Below, piece after piece: positions 1 through 9,179 of a DNA stretch of 49,907 nucleotides (position 1 is the stretch's first letter; the number at the start of each line of letters is the position of its first letter). A program made the position numbers and the translations under genes. Source of the stretch: Thainema sp. (GTDB lineage: Bacteria; Cyanobacteriota; Cyanobacteriia; Phormidesmidales; Phormidesmidaceae); contig JBQLZK010000058.1 in NCBI GenBank assembly GCA_052168235.1, forward strand, positions 1 through 49,907, given 5' to 3'. The notes under the pieces are model-generated. The model was given only the letters and a program-made list of their open reading frames with translations, searched no databases and had not been told where the DNA came from.

Positions 1-155
1 ACGGTCTCAAATGAGACACCCTTGTCCCAAAACCTCAATTAATCGAGGTTCCCTATAGCGAGACAAATGCAAAAGCTGGTGCAGGTAAAGCAATCGTACA
101 AAAAGTTCCTAAGAAAACTGCTACTGAAACAAAAACTGAAATTTACCAACGCTAC

Positions 156-572
156 TTGCGAAGAAGTGGGTGGCGGTTTTGTGAGCCTTCTCTTTTATGG
201 GATATTCTCGTTGAGCTACAACGACATTTCCCAAATGGTTTTACAAGAGCTGAGGAATTTGAGTATTTAGTTGATCGTTTTGGTCAACGCCATAGTCGCT
301 CACATCTGAGAGCAACGATTTACATTTTGTATCGAATCGGTGCTGTGAGAAAGACAAAGGTACTCCTCACCACTGATATCCCTGTCTCCGAAAGAGTTTT
401 GTCAAAAAAGGTTGATGCCTTATTGATAGAGAGGCTTATTGGGATTTGCAAACTACATCAGTTAGATATAGAGGTAGATAGTATCATTCCACTGCTCACA
501 AATTCCTACACAGCATCACAGGTAGAAACTTTGCTATCTAATGCTCAACTTCAAGCAAACAACGCAACATAA
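156..572 (+). CDS. Hypothetical cassette-borne protein, probably 5'-incomplete or interrupted
   Basis: The frame is open from 15 to 572 with TGA at 12-14 and no ATG. The stop TAA lies inside the R'' box (ACATAAC) of the attC site, as is typical of cassette ORFs. Confidence 0.5.
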   Translation: MRRSGWRFCEPSLLWDILVELQRHFPNGFTRAEEFEYLVDRFGQRHSRSHLRATIYILYRIGAVRKTKVLLTTDIPVSERVLSKKVDALLIERLIGICKLHQLDIEVDSIIPLLTNSYTASQVETLLSNAQLQANNAT

Positions 573-652
573 CAACCCTAGTGCAGCGGATTGACCAAAG
601 CCACTTGGTGAGATGCAAAGACCCCGGCAACCGCTGACTAGGAACGTTAGGC
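567..652 (+). mobile_element. attC: Integron attC recombination site 1
   Basis: R'' ACATAAC (567-573) and R' GTTAGGC (646-652). L boxes CTAGTgCAGCGG / CCGCTGACTAG pair with one extra G. Length 86 bp. Confidence 0.85.
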
Positions 653-1011
653 AGTTAATTGCTCGGATAGATCTCGGTTTGAGGTGTATCTGCAGAATCT
701 ATACGCAGTTAAGCAGAGGCATTTGACTGATACAATGCACTTGACAATCCGTTGGTTGTCGGGTAAGCAGATTAAGGGCTTATCCGGAAACCCTCTCAAA
801 CTCCTAGTAAGTCGTGACCAAATTGGGGTATTCGGATAGGTTCTAAGTCCTGAAAGTTTACAGAATAACACCCAACTTCTGTTATTCGGTTTACGATTAA
901 TCCAGTAACAAAAAGCTAGAAATAGCTATGGTAGTTAGACAACGCTAAGTCCATTTCTTGAGCTATCTTCTAAATAACCAATCTCTGTACCTCTAACTAA
1001 ACAGTTCTCAA

Positions 1012-1341
1012 ATGAATCGTCTTGTTGAATACGAAATCGGTGAAGGCCAAAAGATAATTGTCGAAGTTTCTGAGCCTACTCCAGGCGGTCTAGTACCTGT
1101 GGGCCGAGGTTCTGACACAATAGTTAAGGCTCAGCGTACTCTATCTGACACTCTAGATAATATTCGTCCTGCCGCAGAGGCAATAATTGATAAGTTATCA
1201 GATTTAACAAAACGCCCTGACGAGATTGCTATTGAGTTCGGGGTGAAACTGAGTGCTAATGCAGGAGCAGTACTAGCTGCGGCTAGTGCCGAATGCAACT
1301 TTGTTATCCATTTAACATGGAAAGATAGTGATAATGAGTAA
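1012..1341 (+). CDS. Trypsin-co-occurring domain protein (Trypco1 / CU044_2847-like)
   Basis: 109 aa with the PDEIAIEFGVKLSANAGAVLAAASAECNFVIHLTW signature, directly upstream of a trypsin-domain gene. Confidence 0.85.
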   Translation: MNRLVEYEIGEGQKIIVEVSEPTPGGLVPVGRGSDTIVKAQRTLSDTLDNIRPAAEAIIDKLSDLTKRPDEIAIEFGVKLSANAGAVLAAASAECNFVIHLTWKDSDNE

Positions 1342-1461
1342 AATAAACGATGCGATGATGGATTCTAGATTTCACCAAATTTTGAAGTTCTAAATCATTA
1401 TTTTCATAAGGACTTCACTTTCAAGAAACTGATTAATGTTAATCCTACAGTCAACAGCACT

Positions 1462-4074
1462 ATGGAACGTGAACTGTTAAAGTCGCTTATCTGCGTTTGT
1501 GATGGGAACGGCAATCCAAAAGGAGCCGGTCTTCTCATTGATAGTGAGCACATAATCACTTGCGCGCATGTTGTTGCCCAGTCAGTAGGCTATATACCTG
1601 ATGAAGAAACATACTTAGGCCGAGAACTAGAAATCATCCTTTTTGCTGACGGGAAGCCTTCCGCTACGACCGCTGAAGTTGTATCTATGTTTCCTCAAAG
1701 TAATGTTGACTTCGCTGGGCTAAAGCTGAAGATAGCAAATCTTGAGGATTCTTTTTCCAATAAACTTTTGGGTGATACAAACCTCACTAATCATTCGTTG
1801 AGAGTATACGGGTTTCCAAACAATTATGATAATGGTGTTTGGTCTTACGGTGTTGTTCGAGGGGTACAAACAGATGGCTTATTACAAATAGAAAGCAATA
1901 TAAACGCTGCATACCTTATAAAAGGTGGCTTTAGTGGTTCACCTGTATGGGACGATGAGTTAGGGGGGTGGATTGGAATTGTCAATCAAGCAGATTTCCT
2001 CCCAGAAGGTCGTGGTGCGACAGTTGTTCCAGCGTCAGTGTTATATCAATGTTGGTCTGAAGTTCTCTGCCTGACAGCCACGCCAGAACCACAATATTTA
2101 TCTGATTTAGTAGATAGATTTAAGTTAACTGCAGGAATTATTGCTTATGTCCCTCCAAAAATTGAGATTACTGTAAAGACAAGGAAGCCTCAGCCTCATA
2201 TTGCAGAAGGTATCAAGTGGGATAGTGAATTCGACGATTCAAAAGATACTGCTCGAACTGATGATGCATATAAGACGAAAGAAATCAAAACAGGTCTTTC
2301 CGATGTTCTTCGCTCGTATCCTCGCTTTGTTCTCTTAGGAGAACTAGGTTCAGGCAAGAGCACATCTCTGCATTATGAGATTATTCAACTAGCTGAAAAT
2401 CGGCTGAAAAATGGAACTGGCCCAATTCCATTATTAGTCGATCTATCAGAAGAATGGATTATTCCTGAAAATGACGAGACTAATAGAAGCTATCAAAATG
2501 GCTTCAGAAATTTACTAGAAAGGAATTGGAATCTAGATATTGAACTTAATGAAGCATTATCTAGCGCAAGAGTTATCGTTTTTTTAGATGGGCTAAATGA
2601 AATGGGGGCTGCGAGTTCCCAAAAGGTTAGAGCTCTAAAAAAATGGCTTTTTGAGGATAGCTCTCCAAAATATGTAGTTATTGCCTGCCGTGAATCCTCT
2701 TATGAGGAGGATTTAAATCTTGGTTTACCCACAGCTTCGCTTAGTCAGCTGAGCTCAAATAATTGGGAGAAAATCTCAAATAATCTAATTAGCTACTTCA
2801 ACATTACTCAGCCAAGCCAGCTTCAGACAGAAGATTTTTTATCTGCTGTCCGGAACAAAAATAACTTAAGCGAGATTTTAGACAGAAAGCCTTACTTTAC
2901 CGCGCGACTCTTGAATATATGGATCAGAGGAAAAGAACTTCCTGAATCTGAAGCTCTTATCTTAGATGACTTTATAAGTGTCATTTGGAAAAGAGAGACT
3001 GAACAGCAACTTGACCTACCAAAACTTTCGGTCCTTAAAAAATTGCTAGGCAATCTGGCGACATTGTTAATTCTTCAGCAAAAAGATGGCGTTGACTATA
3101 ACAATCTAGCTAGATCGTCAACTGGAACACTTGGGTTTTTATTTAGACGTAATGACCTTGATAGACTTTATGTTGTAGCAAAAGCAGCTAAACGTGCTGA
3201 CTTAATACAAGAAGAAAACAGCCGATATCGTTTTCACGATAAATTCCTTGAGAATTATTTTGCGGCGGTACATATGCTTGAAAATCCTGATTCAGCAATT
3301 CCTAGAGCTGAAGACAAGAGTGTTGATAAAAGCATGTGGCAAGATGCAGTCAATTATTTCTATCAACTCTTAGGCACTGATAGTAGGGCAACGAATATAC
3401 TCCGGAAAGTTGTAAAACGTAATCCATCAATAGCTGTAGATTTTGTTGTTGAATCCGGTTTTCAAAGACAATACGTAAATGTTGTGACAGATAGTTTAGT
3501 TGATTATTTTCATGAAAATAGAGCAGTTTCCTCTGCTGAAGCTTCATCGGTAACAGCGTTAAATAAACTTAAAAATCATTCTCATCCATACATATCATTA
3601 GCCCTTAGAAATAGCCAGGATGATAGCTTAAAGACATTAAGCACAATCATACTGTGCGAAAAGCTTAAAGTAATAGAGGCAATTCCTACACTTAAAAATA
3701 TTATAAAAGATGAAAAGAAATATAAGGATCAGATAAACGTCATAAAATATCGACGTGGATCGGTGACGAGAAAACGTAATAGAGAAATATTAGAATTGAT
3801 TGGAGGAATTGGAATGCTCGGGCTGGCTACAATCCTTCCGTCACTTTTGTCGGGTCAGCCAATTTCATCAGAAAAAATTTCTAAAGAGGCTTCTGAACTC
3901 TTCTCAAAATCTCCAGGGCTTAAGATGGCTTTTGGTGCAACGGCCAGTGAAGTTTTTGACGGAGAAAAACAAAAAGGTGCTATTGATGATGAGCTTAGAG
4001 AGCTTTATACTGCGATTCAAGTAGTTGAAAAAGCTAAATCGACTGTCAAATTTTTAGAGAGAATAAAAGATTAG
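1462..4074 (+). CDS. Trypsin-like serine protease fused to a NACHT (STAND) NTPase with a helical C-terminus
   Basis: Catalytic triad motifs ITCAHVV, VDFAGL and GFSGSPVW. Walker A GELGSGKST, Walker B VIVFLDGLNE, winged-helix YRFHDKFLENYFAA. Hydrophobic segment near the C-terminus. Confidence 0.88.
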   Translation: MERELLKSLICVCDGNGNPKGAGLLIDSEHIITCAHVVAQSVGYIPDEETYLGRELEIILFADGKPSATTAEVVSMFPQSNVDFAGLKLKIANLEDSFSNKLLGDTNLTNHSLRVYGFPNNYDNGVWSYGVVRGVQTDGLLQIESNINAAYLIKGGFSGSPVWDDELGGWIGIVNQADFLPEGRGATVVPASVLYQCWSEVLCLTATPEPQYLSDLVDRFKLTAGIIAYVPPKIEITVKTRKPQPHIAEGIKWDSEFDDSKDTARTDDAYKTKEIKTGLSDVLRSYPRFVLLGELGSGKSTSLHYEIIQLAENRLKNGTGPIPLLVDLSEEWIIPENDETNRSYQNGFRNLLERNWNLDIELNEALSSARVIVFLDGLNEMGAASSQKVRALKKWLFEDSSPKYVVIACRESSYEEDLNLGLPTASLSQLSSNNWEKISNNLISYFNITQPSQLQTEDFLSAVRNKNNLSEILDRKPYFTARLLNIWIRGKELPESEALILDDFISVIWKRETEQQLDLPKLSVLKKLLGNLATLLILQQKDGVDYNNLARSSTGTLGFLFRRNDLDRLYVVAKAAKRADLIQEENSRYRFHDKFLENYFAAVHMLENPDSAIPRAEDKSVDKSMWQDAVNYFYQLLGTDSRATNILRKVVKRNPSIAVDFVVESGFQRQYVNVVTDSLVDYFHENRAVSSAEASSVTALNKLKNHSHPYISLALRNSQDDSLKTLSTIILCEKLKVIEAIPTLKNIIKDEKKYKDQINVIKYRRGSVTRKRNREILELIGGIGMLGLATILPSLLSGQPISSEKISKEASELFSKSPGLKMAFGATASEVFDGEKQKGAIDDELRELYTAIQVVEKAKSTVKFLERIKD

Positions 4075-4082
4075 AGGTTTTT

Positions 4083-4113
4083 TTCAAGAGTTATCGGGAC
4101 AGAGTACTCTTGA
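4083..4113. terminator. Stem-loop after the trypsin-NACHT gene
   Basis: TTCAAGAGT...ACTCTTGAA inverted repeat just after stop 4074, between convergent ORFs. Confidence 0.4.
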
Positions 4114-4211
4114 AACGCCTTGTGAATCGCCGTAGGCACCTGAATCGTGCGACCTGAATGACCTAAAAGAGAAAGCTGTTGTTGCCCCTGCATGAATCTA
4201 AAGAACTGCCA

Positions 4212-4454
4212 TCAAAACTGCTGCCCATCGCCTGACGCCTCAACCACCAGGACATAACTGTGAATGAGCGCTGATAAGACCACCCGTTTCGGGCCACGAG
4301 CTAATACCCCTCCACTGCCATCGAAACGCCGTAACTCGTAGACTCGCGAATCACGCGCATAGCTGAGATTGAGTAGCCCGTGGTGCGTCTGAGCAATGCC
4401 GACTTCCCCATACCGCCGTGCCGCCCTTAAATCCGCCTCAGCGGCCCTCAGCAA
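4212..4454 (-). CDS. Small hypothetical protein or gene remnant in a GC-richer patch
   Basis: 80 aa ORF with a TTG start in a segment visibly more GC-rich than its neighbours. Upstream ATGs are out of frame. Confidence 0.25.
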   Translation of the reverse strand: MLRAAEADLRAARRYGEVGIAQTHHGLLNLSYARDSRVYELRRFDGSGGVLARGPKRVVLSALIHSYVLVVEASGDGQQF

Positions 4455-4589
4455 CGCCTCTCGTAGCGATCGCGGTAAGTGCGATCACCGATCCTGTAAG
4501 GTGCGTTCCCCACTGGTACTCCTATCACCCTGTCGATAGATATTCGGGAACGTACCATGCTCATAAATTCTTTGAGGCAAGTAGTCACA

Positions 4590-4678
4590 GCCTAACAACG
4601 CCCATGCACACCGACCGCCGAGAGTTGATCAGTTAAGGTACGATGCTTACCTGCGGCGGGTGATGGGCAACGTTGTGC
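4590..4678 (+). mobile_element. attC: Integron attC recombination site 2
   Basis: R'' GCCTAAC (4590-4596) is the exact complement of the preceding R' GTTAGGC. GCCCATgCAC / GTGATGGGC pair with an extra G. R' GTTGTGC (4672-4678). Confidence 0.87.
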
Positions 4679-4801
4679 TGCTTAATTCTCCAGATCAATA
4701 CTTCATTCGTTGCTTGGGGCATCTAGGTCATTTGTTGTGTGCATTGAATTTCGTTAGGTATTTGCTTAATTCTTTAAGATACTATTGAAACTAAAAGAGC
4801 T

Positions 4802-5272
4802 ATGGATGCCACAATAGCAGGTTTAATTGGTGCTGCAATTGGTGCAGTGGCTGGAATGGCTGGAACACTGATTACAACCTATCTATAAGCAAAACAAGAG
4901 CATACAAGATGGATACGTGATAAGCGTGTAGAGGCATATTCAAATACAGTCAGGTATTTAGTCAGGGCACTAAATAAACGATCAAGTCTTGTTATTGAGG
5001 GTGGCACTCTTACAAGTGTGATGGGCAAGGATGTAATAAAGGAATGGTTTGATGATTTGAGCGAAATATTGGTTTGGCTATCGGCTGTGTCTATATACTG
5101 TTCAAAAAGTCAGCAATCGAGAATTGCCCATGCTACTCAGGTAGTTAACAAAGCGGTGTGTGATTTTGTTAATTCTGGTTCAGTAACTTCTGATCTTCAA
5201 AATGTGATTTCATCTGCACTGGGTATTGTAGAAGAATGTGTGCGGCAAGATATAGGCAGAGCAGTTAAGTGA
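4802..5272 (+). pseudogene. Membrane-anchored cassette protein interrupted by a nonsense codon
   Basis: ATG 4802 gives MDATIAGLIGAAIGAVAGMAGTLITTYL, then TAA at 4886-4888. The same frame then stays open into ORF 5018-5272. Confidence 0.7.
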
Positions 5273-5365
5273 GGCGATCTGTGTCTGAACCTCATATCAG
5301 AATCGACCAAATAATCTTAGGATATAATGACCGTAAAGGCTGGTAGCCGTTTGGCTGTATTTGTT

Positions 5366-5590
5366 ATGGCATTGACATCTCGTGTTGTTCATAGCGACCC
5401 TGACATTCTGGGGGGAACTCCGGTTTTTGTTGGAACTCGTGTGCCAATGAGAACCTTACTTGATTATCTTGAGGCTGGGGATTCATTGGAAGTATTTCTA
5501 GACCATTTTCCCAGTGTCAGTCGGGAACAGGCGATCGCAGCCCTTGAATTAGCAAAGGAAATGCTAACAGCCTATGCGAATCCTGCTTGA
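5366..5590 (+). CDS. DUF433 family antitoxin
   Basis: SDPDILGGTPVFVGTRVP...LEVFLDHFPSVSREQ signature. Overlaps the downstream PIN-like gene. ATG 5366 preferred over 5327. Confidence 0.92.
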   Translation: MALTSRVVHSDPDILGGTPVFVGTRVPMRTLLDYLEAGDSLEVFLDHFPSVSREQAIAALELAKEMLTAYANPA

Positions 5591-5900
5591 CGAATGTGCC
5601 CCACGACCTTTGAAGCGTGAACTTACCGATTACGAGATACGCACAGTCGTCGAAATGGGATGGTCAGGGAAAAAGAACGGTGAATTGCTAAAGCTTATGA
5701 GCCAAGAGGGTTTCACGATCCTGCTGACGACCGATCAAAATTTGCGCTATCAGCAAAATCTACAGCAAACTGGAGTAGCAGTCGTCGTCCTTGTAGCACC
5801 CAGCAACAAGCTATCTGACTTACTTCCACTGATACCAGATGCTCGAAACGTTTTGAATACCATTGCTCCAGGAGAAGTGATTGAGGTTGGCGGTTCTTAA
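5574..5900 (+). CDS. DUF5615 family PIN-like toxin (VapC45-like)
   Basis: MRILLDEC...NGELL...LLTTDQNL motifs. Canonical partner of DUF433. Confidence 0.9.
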   Translation: MRILLDECAPRPLKRELTDYEIRTVVEMGWSGKKNGELLKLMSQEGFTILLTTDQNLRYQQNLQQTGVAVVVLVAPSNKLSDLLPLIPDARNVLNTIAPGEVIEVGGS

Positions 5901-5919
5901 AAGTCGAGTAGGCGACGCA

Positions 5920-6005
5920 GCACAATAACCCCAATGCACCCGACCGTTGAGAGGTTATCTGCTGGAGTTCTAGGCTGTTAGCGGGGGTGATTGGGAGTGT
6001 TATGC
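5920..6005 (+). mobile_element. attC: Integron attC recombination site 3 (R'' mutated AAC>AAT)
   Basis: GCAGCACAAT (5917-5926) complements GTTGTGCTGC (4672-4681) at 9/10 positions. CCCAATgCACCC / GGGTGATTGGG pair with an extra G. R' GTTATGC (5999-6005). Confidence 0.8.
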
Positions 6006-6071
6006 TGCTCAGATCCGTGTAGTAGCATTGCCGGAAGCAATCTACAGGAAGAAGTTAGCCATACTAATCCG

Positions 6072-6353
6072 ATGACACGCTTTAAGGAAAATCTGAAAAC
6101 GTGGTTACGTCTTACCGCAGTAGCGTTTGTAATATTGGTTGTCATTTTCCTGGCGCTGCCATTGCTTTTCCTGCTTCTACGTATACCCTCATTTGAAATT
6201 GGCCAGGGTGTCCTGTGGCTTGTGCGTTGGCAGAATGACTCCAGCGGCAATGGAATTGAGTTTAATTTGGTGCCTTTGTTAATAGTTGCTGCTATTGTTG
6301 GCGTATTAGGTGTACTGGTTAAGCTTCGACGCGATCGCTCCCGGACACCATGA
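6072..6353 (+). CDS. Small protein with two transmembrane helices
   Basis: ATG 6072, two long hydrophobic stretches, follows attC3. Confidence 0.6.
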   Translation: MTRFKENLKTWLRLTAVAFVILVVIFLALPLLFLLLRIPSFEIGQGVLWLVRWQNDSSGNGIEFNLVPLLIVAAIVGVLGVLVKLRRDRSRTP

Positions 6354-6556
6354 CTGAGCAATTGATATTATCCAAACAGCATCCATTAAAGCTCTATTCC
6401 CCTAGTGTAATGATGAATCTTGGTCTCGGTATTGGCTTGGGCGCAGGTATCGGAACTGCCGTAGGTGTAGCAACGGACAACATTGGTATTGGACTTGGCA
6501 TAGGGATTGCGATCGGTATTGCGATCGGACTTCAAGGCGGTAACGGTGGCAGATAG
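6350..6556 (+). CDS. Small glycine-zipper membrane protein
   Basis: GLGIGLGAGIGTAVG...GIGLGIGIAIGIAIG GxxxG repeats. ATGA overlap with the upstream ORF; the start may instead be ATG ~6410. Confidence 0.55.
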   Translation: MTEQLILSKQHPLKLYSPSVMMNLGLGIGLGAGIGTAVGVATDNIGIGLGIGIAIGIAIGLQGGNGGR

Positions 6557-6564
6557 AAATTGAG

Positions 6565-7041
6565 TTAATAGTTTCGCTGCTGATCTTGTTGGCGATATCG
6601 CTGAAACGACGACTGCTGCCGCGACTGCTGAGCCTGCTGCGACGAACGATTGCCCAAATAACCCCCGCTTGCCGGATTACTCTGCCCTTGCTGATCGCTA
6701 GACTGAAGCGATAAGTAATCAAGCTGCACCCAACCTGCTGCCTCGGTCGCTCCCTCAAATTGAATCCGATTCCAGGTTGTACCGCTGTTGCTGCCGACCT
6801 GCTCTAGTACGGTCACGGGGTCGCCGCTGAGGCCAAAGCCGACTCTCGCTGTCCGCGTATCCGGCTTGGGATAAATATTGATTTCCATTTCTGGATCGGG
6901 CGCAACTAAGCTGGCAGGTTGATGGATGGCCTGATTGCTTTGACTGGGTTGAGCCAGAGCGTGAGGAATCGCTAACCCAAACAGCATGAATCCAATCAAC
7001 AAACTAAGAGCAATCTGCCGAAGTATTATCATCTGCGCCAA
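6565..7041 (-). CDS. Secreted bacterial SH3-domain protein
   Basis: Signal peptide, INIYPKPDT...GDPVTVL...WNRIQF...GWV SH3b pattern, Gln-rich tail. Confidence 0.8.
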   Translation of the reverse strand: MAQMIILRQIALSLLIGFMLFGLAIPHALAQPSQSNQAIHQPASLVAPDPEMEINIYPKPDTRTARVGFGLSGDPVTVLEQVGSNSGTTWNRIQFEGATEAAGWVQLDYLSLQSSDQQGQSNPASGGYLGNRSSQQAQQSRQQSSFQRYRQQDQQRNY

Positions 7042-7682
7042 CCTTTTTAAGTTTTTCCAATTCTGCAGCAGCTACCGCTTGCAGTTAATCCTAGACGAGA
7101 CATTTCTATAATCGCCGCTTAATCGCTGCGTTCCACTTGCAAATCTTTTACAAGCTGTAAAAGATTACTTGTTTTTGTGGCTGAATTCAAAGTTCAGACA
7201 TAACATTTTTATTTTGTTTTAAGGATCTTTATTGTGTAGCTAAAAAGCGAATCGAGCTACTGATAAATTTGTCAGTCAGAACCAATCATCATTCTATAAA
7301 ACGTCTGCGATGCCTGTAGTACAAGGCTTATAAGCTGGATTTACTTGTCTCGTATTTGTATGGTCAATCAGAAAACTGGCTGTAGCTAAAGCATCAGTGG
7401 CTTATTTTTCTAACTGCGATCGCAACTTGAGCGAAAAACGGTATTGCTAATCACAAAAATATTTAAGCCGGATTTGTACTGTCAGGAGAAATTATAAAGG
7501 TCTTCGAGAGCCAGTTTGATAAAACGGCTTGGGTTTCCTCGTAGCTGTTGCAAAATCAATGCTATTTAGTCAAGAGAAACTGTCTGATTCAGCACCATTT
7601 ATTCACTCGCTCTCTGTCTAATCCAAAAGACGAACCTGCAAGAACACTCTACCCTCTTTCCGTTTTACGATGGAGATCGTCC

Positions 7683-9125
7683 ATGAGCCAGAGCAACATT
7701 GATATCGAGCTGCAACAGTCACAACAGAAGCCACCCTCTCCTCCGCCCTATACAGGCTGGCAAGCTGCGATCGCAAACTATTTCAGCTTTGACTATTACA
7801 AAACGGGGTTTCGCACCGAAATCCTGGCGGGTCTCACAACGTTCATGACGATGGCCTACGTTTTGGTGGTGCATCCGCTGATTATGTCGGATGCGGTGTT
7901 TCTGTCTGAATCGGGCGACCTGTTTCGGGAACTGGTAGTCGTCACCGGAATTACCGCTGCGATCGGCACTCTGGTCATGGGTCTTTATGCCAAATACCCC
8001 TTTGTTCTGGCTCCCGGTATGGGCACAAACGCCTTCTTTGCCTACTCGGTTGTCCTCGGTTTAGGAATCGACTGGCGAGTGGCGCTGGCCTGCGTTTTGA
8101 TTGAAGGTCTGATCTTCATCGGCCTGACGGTGACCGACATTCGCCGCCATCTAATCACGGCTGTGCCCAACTGCATCAAAGTGTCTACAACCGTTGGTAT
8201 TGGCTTGTTTCTGGCCTATATCGGCCTCGCCAGCAACACCGAAACGGGCGGGGCTGGACTGATTGTTGCCAATGAGGTGACCAAAACAACATTCGGCAGC
8301 TTCCGCGAACCTGCCACCCTACTGGCCACCTTCGGTATCTTCATCTCGGTCATGTTCATGATTCGCCGGATTAAAGGGGCGCTGCTCTGGGGCATTGCTG
8401 GAACGGCCATCCTGGGCTGGATCTTTGGCGTCGCTGCCCCCCCCAGCGGCATTGCTGCTGTCCCGATCTTCCCCAGCAATCTGGTTGGTGCGGCCTTTCA
8501 GGGCTTGGGCGGCATTAATGCGGGCAACATTATTGACTTTCTGGCTGTGCTGCTGGTTTTCCTGTTTGTAGACATGTTTGACACCATCGGCACGCTGATG
8601 GGGGTTGGTACGCAGGCGGGTTACATTGACGAAAATGGGGAACTGCCACGGGCCAATCAGGCTTTGTCAGCAGATGCGATCGCAACCACAGCAGGCGCGA
8701 TTATGGGCACCTCCACCGTCACCACCTTTGCGGAATCGGCCTCTGGCGTCGCGGAAGGTGGCCGCACTGGTCTTACCGCTGTAGTTGCCGCGATTATGTT
8801 CTTAGTAGCGCTGCTGTTCGTCCCGATTTTTGAAGCGATTCCGGCCTTTGCGACAGCTCCGGCGCTGCTAATTGTCGGCGTGCTGATGATGTCGGCAATT
8901 GTTAATATCCGCTGGAGCGATTTGACAGAAGCAATTCCAGCCTTTGTCACCATCTTCTTTATCCCACTCGGCTTTTCAATCGCCGCTGGTCTATCGGCTG
9001 GCCTGATTCTCTACCCCTTCACTAAGCTGGTCAGCGGTCGCACCAGCGAAGTTTCCCTTGTTACCTGGATCTTGGCCGCTATCTTTATTTTCCGCTTTGT
9101 TTTTACCACCATGCGGTTTGGCTAA
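7683..9125 (+). CDS. NCS2/AzgA family nucleobase (guanine/hypoxanthine-type) permease
   Basis: TEILAGLTTFMTMAY, APGMG, DMFDTIGTL and ESASGVAEGGRTGLTA motifs, with many TM helices. ATG 7683 preferred over TTG 7548. Confidence 0.93.
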   Translation: MSQSNIDIELQQSQQKPPSPPPYTGWQAAIANYFSFDYYKTGFRTEILAGLTTFMTMAYVLVVHPLIMSDAVFLSESGDLFRELVVVTGITAAIGTLVMGLYAKYPFVLAPGMGTNAFFAYSVVLGLGIDWRVALACVLIEGLIFIGLTVTDIRRHLITAVPNCIKVSTTVGIGLFLAYIGLASNTETGGAGLIVANEVTKTTFGSFREPATLLATFGIFISVMFMIRRIKGALLWGIAGTAILGWIFGVAAPPSGIAAVPIFPSNLVGAAFQGLGGINAGNIIDFLAVLLVFLFVDMFDTIGTLMGVGTQAGYIDENGELPRANQALSADAIATTAGAIMGTSTVTTFAESASGVAEGGRTGLTAVVAAIMFLVALLFVPIFEAIPAFATAPALLIVGVLMMSAIVNIRWSDLTEAIPAFVTIFFIPLGFSIAAGLSAGLILYPFTKLVSGRTSEVSLVTWILAAIFIFRFVFTTMRFG

Positions 9126-9179
9126 AACAGCTGTCTCTGCGGCGAATTCAAGCCATAATGGGCGATGACTGCATCGGAG

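Follow-up and report, generated by a model that had tools for sequence, protein, structure and literature searches.

A 4-kb gene cassette with a predicted Trypco1 and protease-NACHT module in an integrase-less attC cluster of the cyanobacterium Thainema sp.

Can a single integron gene cassette of about 4 kb carry a whole NLR-like immune module and, if so, is such a cassette still mobile? This question is raised by a stretch of 49,907 nucleotides (hereafter the window) from Thainema sp. (assembly GCA_052168235.1, contig JBQLZK010000058.1), which is the first 49.9 kb of contig C58 in a draft genome of 7.54 Mb and 205 contigs. A preliminary description of this DNA had reported a 4026-bp unit holding a Trypco1 gene and a gene for a protease fused to a STAND NTPase, and proposed that it was a defence system mobilised as an integron cassette. 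The analysis presented here leads, with a probability of roughly three in four, to a more restricted reading: the unit is a real integron cassette within an attC cluster lacking an integrase, its cargo is a two-gene abortive-infection module, and the whole is a patchwork that is probably sedentary.

The cassette itself is defined by its attC sites (Table 1). The three sites of the window share one plan, R''-AAC-L''...L'-AAC-R', with an R'' box of the form xxxTAAC, a 3-nt spacer and a long imperfect stem whose bulged bases are found only in the 5' arm, then a variable loop, and at the end the spacer and the R' box (GTTxxxx). The R' box of site 1 (GTTAGGC) occupies positions 646-652, with the crossover at G646|T647; site 2 has its R'' box (GCCTAAC) at 4590-4596 and its R' box (GTTGTGC) at 4672-4678, with the crossover at G4672|T4673. 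The unit that had been delimited by matching R' and R'' boxes is thereby recovered to the base, T647..G4672, from both crossovers. The DNA fold of site 2 has an energy of -21 to -22 kcal/mol (z -2.2 and -2.8). When the three sites are aligned with two paralogues from other contigs, 96.7% of the cells pair, 8 of the 18 pairs are compensatory and none of 500 shuffles is as good; slid controls of the same alignment pair at 30-49%. Since the window's own sites had built the first covariance model (R1), a second one (R2) was made from nine attC sites outside the window (contigs C80 and C1 of the same genome, and two other genomes), and 13 of the 18 pairs of its alignment are compensatory. With filters off, neither model finds a further attC site in 647-4672, the best R1 match there having 8.7 bits (E 4.1) and R2 giving none at E<0.5. 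These models replaced a regular-expression scan, which had returned only sites 1 and 2 besides perfect palindromes elsewhere.

The ends of the cassette also agree with the matching of boxes between neighbouring integron sites. As recombination by the integrase exchanges everything 3' of the G, the R' box of one site is expected to complement the R'' box of the next. The first six bases of the cassette, TTAGGC, complement its own R'' (GCCTAA), which makes 7/7 when the G is included, and the start of the next cassette (TTGTGC) agrees at 6/7 with the R'' of site 3 (GCACAAT). Elsewhere in the genome, the consecutive pairs of the C80 array give 7/7 and 7/7 and that of C1 gives 6/7. The complete match is thus found in three of the five consecutive pairs of the genome, and complementarity within a single site is only 4-6 of 7. 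Taken alone, one 7/7 match is modest evidence, because random pairings of the 17 attC sites of the genome reach it in 9 of 289 cases and because GTTAGGC is perfectly matched by 2 of the 17 R'' boxes. T647..G4672 is a genuine integron gene cassette, in a phylum already counted among those with integrons (PMC4889954).

Integrases of the appropriate kind are common among the relatives of this strain. The integron integrase family TIGR02249 exceeds its NCBI cut-off of 265 bits in 23 of 41 related genomes, often several times per genome, and in none of 14 control genomes. Of eight cases in which an attC match and an intI match share a contig and lie within 6 kb of each other, seven show the divergent arrangement of classical integrons (read from coordinates); this placement implies that cassettes are read on the + strand, in agreement with the orientation of every cassette open reading frame (ORF) here. 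It is against this background that one should judge the idea that the hairpins are other cyanobacterial repeats, of the repetitive extragenic palindrome (REP) or miniature inverted-repeat transposable element (MITE) type, and that there is no cassette at all. The 17 sites are indeed scattered over many contigs, mostly singly, a 110-nt hairpin element with HIP1 at its ends is joined to one attC subfamily, and the source genome has no integrase. Yet the RYYYAAC and GTTRRRY boxes, the bulges confined to the 5' arm, the variable loop, the matching between neighbours, the integrases lying divergently beside these sites in relatives and the publication of a Cyanobacteria-specific attC model or class (Ghaly et al. 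2021, PMC8352920) make this idea highly improbable.

In the window, the gaps between consecutive attC sites are 3938 and 1242 bp, all sites are on the + strand, and the only TIGR02249 match of the genome lies on another contig, C41. By the definition of Cury et al. 2016 (PMC4889954), a cluster of attC sites lacking integron-integrases (CALIN) has two or more attC sites on the same strand, spaced by under 4 kb, and no neighbouring intI. The array of the window is a CALIN in this sense, or else the far part of a sedentary chromosomal integron that the end of the contig truncates: the cassette begins 647 bases from the contig start, and the sequence to the left of the array, where an integrase may lie, was not assembled with the window. 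The match on C41 is a 107-aa ORF (G000:C41:2065-2250; loci L001 and L004) with a divergent attC at C41:5187-5274, 3 kb away, and represents a decayed integron elsewhere in the genome. The same kind of integrase fragment, of about 62 residues, is kept by a genome of the same genus (G001), which is too diverged for a comparison of synteny (66% identity at the flanking permease).

The size of the cassette is a second reason to question its present mobility. The largest known cassettes have been put at about 2 kb (Cury et al., PMC4889954), and the other consecutive attC spacings measured in this genome are about 0.85, 1.65, 0.97 and 1.33 kb. In a cassette-capture assay, recovery falls with size, and a single cassette, the one whose attC sites were 4 kb apart, failed to be recovered (10.64898/2026.03.17.712381). 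The proposal that the module is mobilised as an integron cassette is therefore not borne out, given the lack of an intact integrase in the genome and the hampering of recombination reported for a 4-kb spacing. As there is no resident integrase, the cassette is probably sedentary now. Small shares of two DNA sequencing runs contained only short pieces identical to it, with no joints, and left most of it uncovered.

What does this cassette carry? Its first gene encodes, as previously described, a Trypco1 protein, with matches to PF19493 (97.9 bits for a cut-off of 24.6) and NF041216 (76.5 bits for a cut-off of 23), and lies 120 nt upstream of the protease-STAND gene. The association is a constant one: Trypco1 stands beside a protease gene in all six close loci (the L. 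boryana plasmid, Scytonema, Okeania, two metagenome contigs and the window itself) as well as in four of four actinobacterial or Nostoc plasmid loci. Trypco1 had already been named as a constant neighbour of trypsin-like peptidases in conflict systems (Kaur et al. 2020, PMC7159879). At the C-terminus, the homologues have I or V at position 99 followed by a basic or polar residue (K/R/H/T), and Trp103 is invariant in nine of nine. The long leader upstream of the gene does contain the TTGACA hexamer reported at 741-746; its candidacy as a promoter was rejected, as it is not accompanied by a matching -10 box.

The architecture announced for the second protein, a protease-STAND NTPase with a helical tail and a hydrophobic C-terminal helix, agrees with the domains and motifs of its 870 residues. 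The N-terminal domain matches Trypsin_2 (PF13365; 42.1 bits, cut-off 27.6), with the triad H36, D83 and S158 in conserved columns and the catalytic Ser in a G-x-S-G motif. It is followed by intact P-loop NTPase motifs (Walker A K299, Walker B D376), and positions 266-696 of the family profile align with residues 149-661 of NLRC4, from NBD to HD2 (E 2.6e-9). At the C-terminal end come a basic segment, the hydrophobic 19-mer of residues 779-797 (Kyte-Doolittle 1.82) and, behind it, a tail of some 70 residues; in six of eight relatives the peak of hydrophobicity falls at the same position. Full-length relatives are few, with 25 representatives below E 1e-30 among 1.84 billion, and a first metagenome scan with the single 870-aa protein found no relative.

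The C-terminal sensor, which had not been recognised initially, is still without a family. The region after residue 600 has no significant match of its own in Pfam or PDB sequence searches. Pfam HEAT or ARM families are absent from it, only ARM_TT21_N appearing at E up to 10 (12.6 bits), and the profile of the C-termini of the close clade finds nothing better in the PDB than Pelota at E 0.014. A HEAT-repeat sensor was considered and rejected, there being neither a Pfam HEAT match nor a PDB HEAT match for the C-termini of the close clade; the HEAT and alphaRep matches of the family profile were discounted because this profile includes TIR-NACHT-HEAT proteins. In the ESM Atlas, the best scores for residues 610-870 are 0.83-0.87, all below 0.9, and serve as leads only.

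Comparison with homologous loci informs both the cargo and its vehicle. In the closest relative (P0003), Trypco1 is 91% identical and the STAND protein 60%, as would be expected if the effector is conserved while the sensor diversifies. Linkage of the Trypco1-protease-NACHT pair to an attC is seen in two lineages, that of the window and that of a metagenome contig (L079) whose pro-toxin is 70% and whose STAND protein, the sensor, is 45% identical. The attC of L079 belongs to the same family (R1 58.1 bits, R2 60.7 bits), lies on the same strand 68 nt after the stop codon, and is followed by comF- and dprA-like genes. The leader of this contig (positions 1-130) starts with several copies of a GTAGATCTAC-type palindrome and is unrelated to that of the window. 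The STAND protein of L079 is itself 81% identical to the copy found on a plasmid of Leptolyngbya boryana NIES-2135 (AP018204; L005, positions 6001-9168), which has no attC and lies beside a Xer-like recombinase. This recombinase was rejected as an IntI, its TIGR02249 score being only 23 bits. At its C-terminus, the L. boryana STAND protein has a DnaJ_C-like domain (25.2 bits, slightly below the cut-off); an 83-aa fragment of an Hsp70 substrate-binding domain follows its gene, and a subtilase, an AAA ATPase and the Xer-like recombinase are encoded upstream. No attC was found at the Scytonema, Okeania and distant Chloroflexi loci. Close homologues both inside and outside integrons have likewise been described for the defence cassettes of mobile integrons (10.1101/2024.07.02.601719).

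A working model for the module is provided by the Streptomyces pair studied by Evans et al. (10.1101/2025.11.14.688446). In that system, an Avs4-type STAND protein binds the phage portal and then cuts a 2-kDa C-terminal tail from Pepco, the Trypco1-family partner, after a conserved Ile that precedes a charged, disordered tail. The truncated Pepco kills E. coli, and toxicity is lost when the catalytic Ser of the adjacent STAND-fused trypsin-like protease is mutated; "transmembrane STAND ATPases" are listed there among the Pepco-linked sensors. By analogy with this homologue, the Trypco1 of the cassette would be made as a harmless, self-assembled beta-barrel, while its 870-aa partner would be a membrane-anchored STAND NTPase of the NACHT type whose helical C-terminal region senses a signal, probably phage-derived or envelope-associated. 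Sensing would lead to NTP-dependent oligomerisation, which would activate the N-terminal protease domains (H36/D83/S158); these would then clip the C-terminal end of Trypco1, and the barrel would become a membrane pore lethal to the infected cell. The preliminary description had spoken of an NLR-like, protease-effector defence system. The Trypco1 and trypsin-NACHT conflict module stands, but the protease would be the trigger and Trypco1 the death effector, because the published Pepco homologue works in this way.

Whether the signal comes from a phage deserves a separate discussion. The module could instead serve programmed cell death, kin conflict or envelope stress in a filamentous or multicellular cyanobacterium, or act as an addiction module stabilising the array. 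Trypco-trypsin pairs have been presented as conflict systems enriched in multicellular bacteria, with no fixed target (PMC7159879), the DnaJ_C-like end and adjoining Hsp70 fragment of the L. boryana locus hint at a proteotoxic-stress input, the neighbouring cassette carries a toxin-antitoxin pair, and the sensor shows no domain known for binding phage proteins but does have a membrane helix. However, the single Pepco-protease pair that has been characterised is set off by phage portal proteins (10.1101/2025.11.14.688446), and integron cassettes are a demonstrated store of phage-defence systems (10.1101/2024.07.02.601719; 10.64898/2026.03.17.712381), so that a role unrelated to phages appears doubtful, and an abortive-infection function is retained as the preferred one.

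Several observations weigh against the reading of this unit as a defence cassette. The source genome lacks an intact integron integrase, the stub on C41 covering only model positions 1-62 (69.6 bits for the 265-bit cut-off). An attC is found at only one of six relatives' loci (L005, L006, L007, L022, L079 and L080, the last of which looks like a duplicate of the L. boryana plasmid locus); to the question whether homologues are flanked by attC sites, which the preliminary description had proposed to check, the answer is thus yes for L079 and no for the other five. The NACHT family (PF05729) scores only 20 and 22.6 bits for the 870-aa protein, under the cut-off of 26.7, while its relatives reach 27.3-30.9 bits, above it. 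PADLOC, whose use had been recommended, recognises the protease part (residues 15-196, as RT-Protease_XI) but nothing else of the module, with no match of the Avs, bNACHT or Pepco type. In Trypco1, the cleavage-site Ile of Pepco has no clear counterpart, no Ile is invariant among nine cyanobacterial and actinobacterial homologues, and the tail after Trp103 has 6 residues, against 15-17 charged, proline-rich ones in the Streptomyces homologues; judging from these alignments, the published cleavage site does not seem to transfer cleanly to Trypco1 here. A promoter scan, with 8 sites found for 9.3 expected, has none on the + strand of the leader. Lastly, the interior of the cassette is a mosaic.

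This mosaic can be followed from one end of the cassette to the other. The conserved 5' end recurs in another genome (G019), where it begins an unrelated cassette behind a different attC (R2 47.2 bits, L056 4043-4125). The leader then contains a hairpin repeat of 72-76 nt with terminal inverted repeats of about AGARCCTATCCG. Its five other copies in the genome (G000 C63:35592-35665, C14:1672-1749, C50:41901-41973, C114:12089-12157 and C24:51112-51188), its absence from 40 relatives and the lack of an Rfam match are those of what is probably a young MITE. The unit had been called AT-rich, with no HIP1 before 4467. The first HIP1 octamer is indeed found at 4466, and none occurs in 647-4465 where 4.5 would be expected (Poisson P about 0.011), the genome having a GC content of 50.0% and one HIP1 per 841 bp; AT-richness holds for the block that extends to position 4113, but not for the piece behind it (4114-4478), which has a different origin. 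Right after the STAND stop codon and a T run, a 9-bp inverted repeat, TTCAAGAGT ... ACTCTTGAA, can be read at 4083-4114; it is not listed by the terminator scan, and the AT-rich block ends exactly there.

The piece behind the AT-rich block is an inverted foreign fragment, made of the 3' part of a small Zn-ribbon-like ORF and the first 27 codons of a PAPS-reductase-like (SGGKDS) gene. The full genes are found in L047 (801-1988), next to a DDE transposase, in the genome G020 from a different genus. The fragment is cut at both ends and joins the next piece at a 5-nt overlap, TAAGT. This next piece is the 110-nt hairpin element. Seventeen copies of it were fetched from relatives (L048, L049 and L064-L078), in at least nine related genomes; 12 of them lie directly 5' of one attC subtype and 5 are without that subtype, while four copies are preceded by a sequence resembling an R'' box and spacer, as if inserted into attC sites. 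The element has no Rfam match. Together with its attC it forms a 195-nt unit which recurs behind unrelated DNA in at least nine genomes. The preliminary description had pointed to extra attC sites or insertion sequence ends inside the unit as signs of secondary insertion: no attC lies inside, but two small repeat elements and the truncated foreign fragment do. Because these small repeats and this stray gene fragment lie within the unit, at least the 3' quarter of the cassette was put together by recombination not due to an integrase.

Such a structure lends itself to another explanation, in which both attC sites are real and the module was never captured by an integrase. Illegitimate or transposition-type recombination would have placed it in a small pre-existing cassette, or between two cassettes that lost the attC separating them, and the 4-kb unit would be an accident of decay that cannot be mobilised. 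The recurrence of the first 47 nt in G019 and of the last 195 nt in at least nine genomes, each time with different cargo, fits this scenario, as do the microhomology at which the inverted fragment of 365 bp joins the attC-linked element, the genome-specific repeat in the leader, the reduction of the integrase to a stub, the failure to recover a 4-kb spacing in the capture assay (10.64898/2026.03.17.712381) and the usual limit of about 2 kb (PMC4889954). On the other hand, the homologous module of L079 has its attC close behind the stop codon with no junk between them, which implies that the gene pair does occur as ordinary cassette cargo. The end rule is satisfied at all seven positions, two models with filters off detect no attC remnant inside, and cargo in this array is generally AT-rich (GC content 40.8% upstream of the 4-kb unit and 43.1% downstream of it). 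An accidental origin of the whole unit is therefore possible but rather unlikely, and a real, patchwork cassette remains the preferred reading.

Table 1. Coordinates of the features of the attC array and of the 4-kb cassette in the window
Feature	Position	Strand	Evidence or content
attC site 1 (end of upstream cassette)	567..652	+	R1 82.4 bits (training member), R2 73 bits, attC hairpin fold
Gene cassette, 4026 bp	647..4672	+	Between the crossovers of attC sites 1 and 2
Conserved cassette 5' end	647..691	+	89% identical over 47 nt to G019:C24 (L056 4118-4164)
AT-rich block	647-4113		38.8% GC, HIP1-free, like cargo of neighbouring cassettes
Hairpin (MITE-like) repeat in leader, 72-76 nt	775..848	+	Five more copies in genome, 80-99%, sharp borders
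Trypco1 / Pepco-family small protein, 109 aa, predicted pore-forming pro-toxin	1012..1341	+	PF19493, NF041216
Trypsin-like protease fused to a NACHT-type STAND NTPase (870 aa), with helical region, hydrophobic helix and ~70-aa tail	1462..4074	+	Trypsin_2, motifs
Truncated inverted foreign fragment, 365 bp	4114..4478	-	95% identical to G020:C262:949-1315; 55.9% GC, carries HIP1
110-nt hairpin element with HIP1-bearing ends, fused 5' of attC	4476..4589	+	Sharp 5' border, conserved 11-bp stem
attC site 2 (own site of 4-kb cassette)	4590..4678	+	R1 94.2 bits (training member), R2 69.3 bits
Next cassette, 1327 bp	4673..5999	+	84-aa ORF of unknown function, DUF433 / PIN-like (DUF5615) toxin-antitoxin pair
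attC site 3 (last of array in window)	5920..6005	+	R1 79.8 bits (training member), R2 43.5 bits

The next cassette is of a more familiar type. Its DUF433 and PIN-like products (DUF433 65.2 bits, DUF5615 25.2 bits, and PIN_10 25.9 bits, just under the cut-off) make up a toxin-antitoxin pair such as chromosomal integrons commonly hold. Behind the last attC, positions 5991-6556 hold two Gly-rich hydrophobic ORFs of 120 and 68 aa with no family match and no attC behind them; this segment is either the end of the array or a cassette that lost its site. The Rfam scan of positions 1-8000 gave only a chance snoRNA match (E 0.18), and no tRNA was found.

If these readings are correct, the locus has several implications, even though neither the cassette nor the module overturns current views. 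An NLR-like module with a protease-gated pore toxin would occupy a cassette about twice the size usually quoted as an upper limit, and the role of integrons as anti-phage stores would extend from Vibrio and clinical integrons to cyanobacteria. The two-gene system is compact enough to ask about the signals of membrane-anchored STAND sensors and about the licensing of short-tailed Trypco1 proteins, and the mosaic ends offer a concrete locus for studying the assembly of cassettes and their decay after integrase loss. A broader proposal can be put forward only tentatively and is, as it stands, unlikely: that complete NLR-like immune modules are trafficked by cyanobacterial integrons, each as one very large cassette, and that the 195-nt unit may turn arbitrary DNA into cassettes. 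Were it true, this unit as a cassette-maker would bear on the open question of cassette birth.

Among known systems, SsPepco-SsAvs4 of Streptomyces subrutilus (10.1101/2025.11.14.688446) is the one whose mode of action was borrowed above. Both have a small Trypco1/Pepco gene directly upstream of a STAND NTPase with an N-terminal trypsin-like protease whose catalytic Ser lies in a G-x-S-G motif, and the Pepco contexts reported in that work include "transmembrane STAND ATPases" and cyanobacteria, as here. In contrast with the Streptomyces pair, the STAND part of the present protein is NACHT-like with no PADLOC Avs match, its C-terminal sensor has a hydrophobic helix and no family match, the tail after the invariant Trp counts 6 residues instead of about 20 with no conserved Ile evident, and the module is borne by a cassette. 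The Trypco1/Trypco2-trypsin pairs (PMC7159879) share with it the PF19493 family, which was defined there, a trypsin-like peptidase neighbour and an enrichment in cyanobacteria and actinobacteria. However, the systems described in that work are mainly vWA-MoxR-VMAP ternary ones, whereas the cassette contains two genes, with the protease fused to the NACHT-type NTPase, and no MoxR or vWA gene.

The layout of the 870-aa protein, effector, then NACHT, then a helical or repeat sensor, is that of animal NLRC4 and other NACHT NLRs, although its effector domain would be a protease acting on a separate pro-toxin, and it has a membrane helix and no leucine-rich repeats. Bacterial NACHT proteins form a further comparison group beside these animal NACHT NLRs.

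As for the vehicle, the cassette resembles the phage-defence integron cassettes (BRiCs; 10.1101/2024.07.02.601719) in having a defence system between attC sites and close homologues outside integrons as well. The phage-defence cassettes of Kieffer et al., Darracq et al. (Science 2025) and Getz et al. 2025, as cited in 10.64898/2026.03.17.712381, were found in Vibrio and in proteobacterial mobile integrons, and most of them are small. The present one differs from them in being cyanobacterial, 4 kb long, NLR-like and made of two genes, and in belonging to an array without integrase. A narrow literature search for integron cassettes with STAND and NACHT found no report of an NLR-like integron cassette. 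The array itself is like the CALIN and sedentary integrons of Cyanobacteria (PMC4889954, PMC8352920), with at least two attC sites of the cyanobacterial type on one strand, no integrase, and integrase pseudogenes elsewhere in the genome. Taken singly, the components are all familiar: the array is a cyanobacterial CALIN, the cassette one of those that carry a defence system, and the module a Pepco-protease-STAND pair whose sensor is membrane-anchored. Novelty lies in the way they are combined and in the length of the cassette, together with a second attC-linked member and the recurring 195-nt unit.

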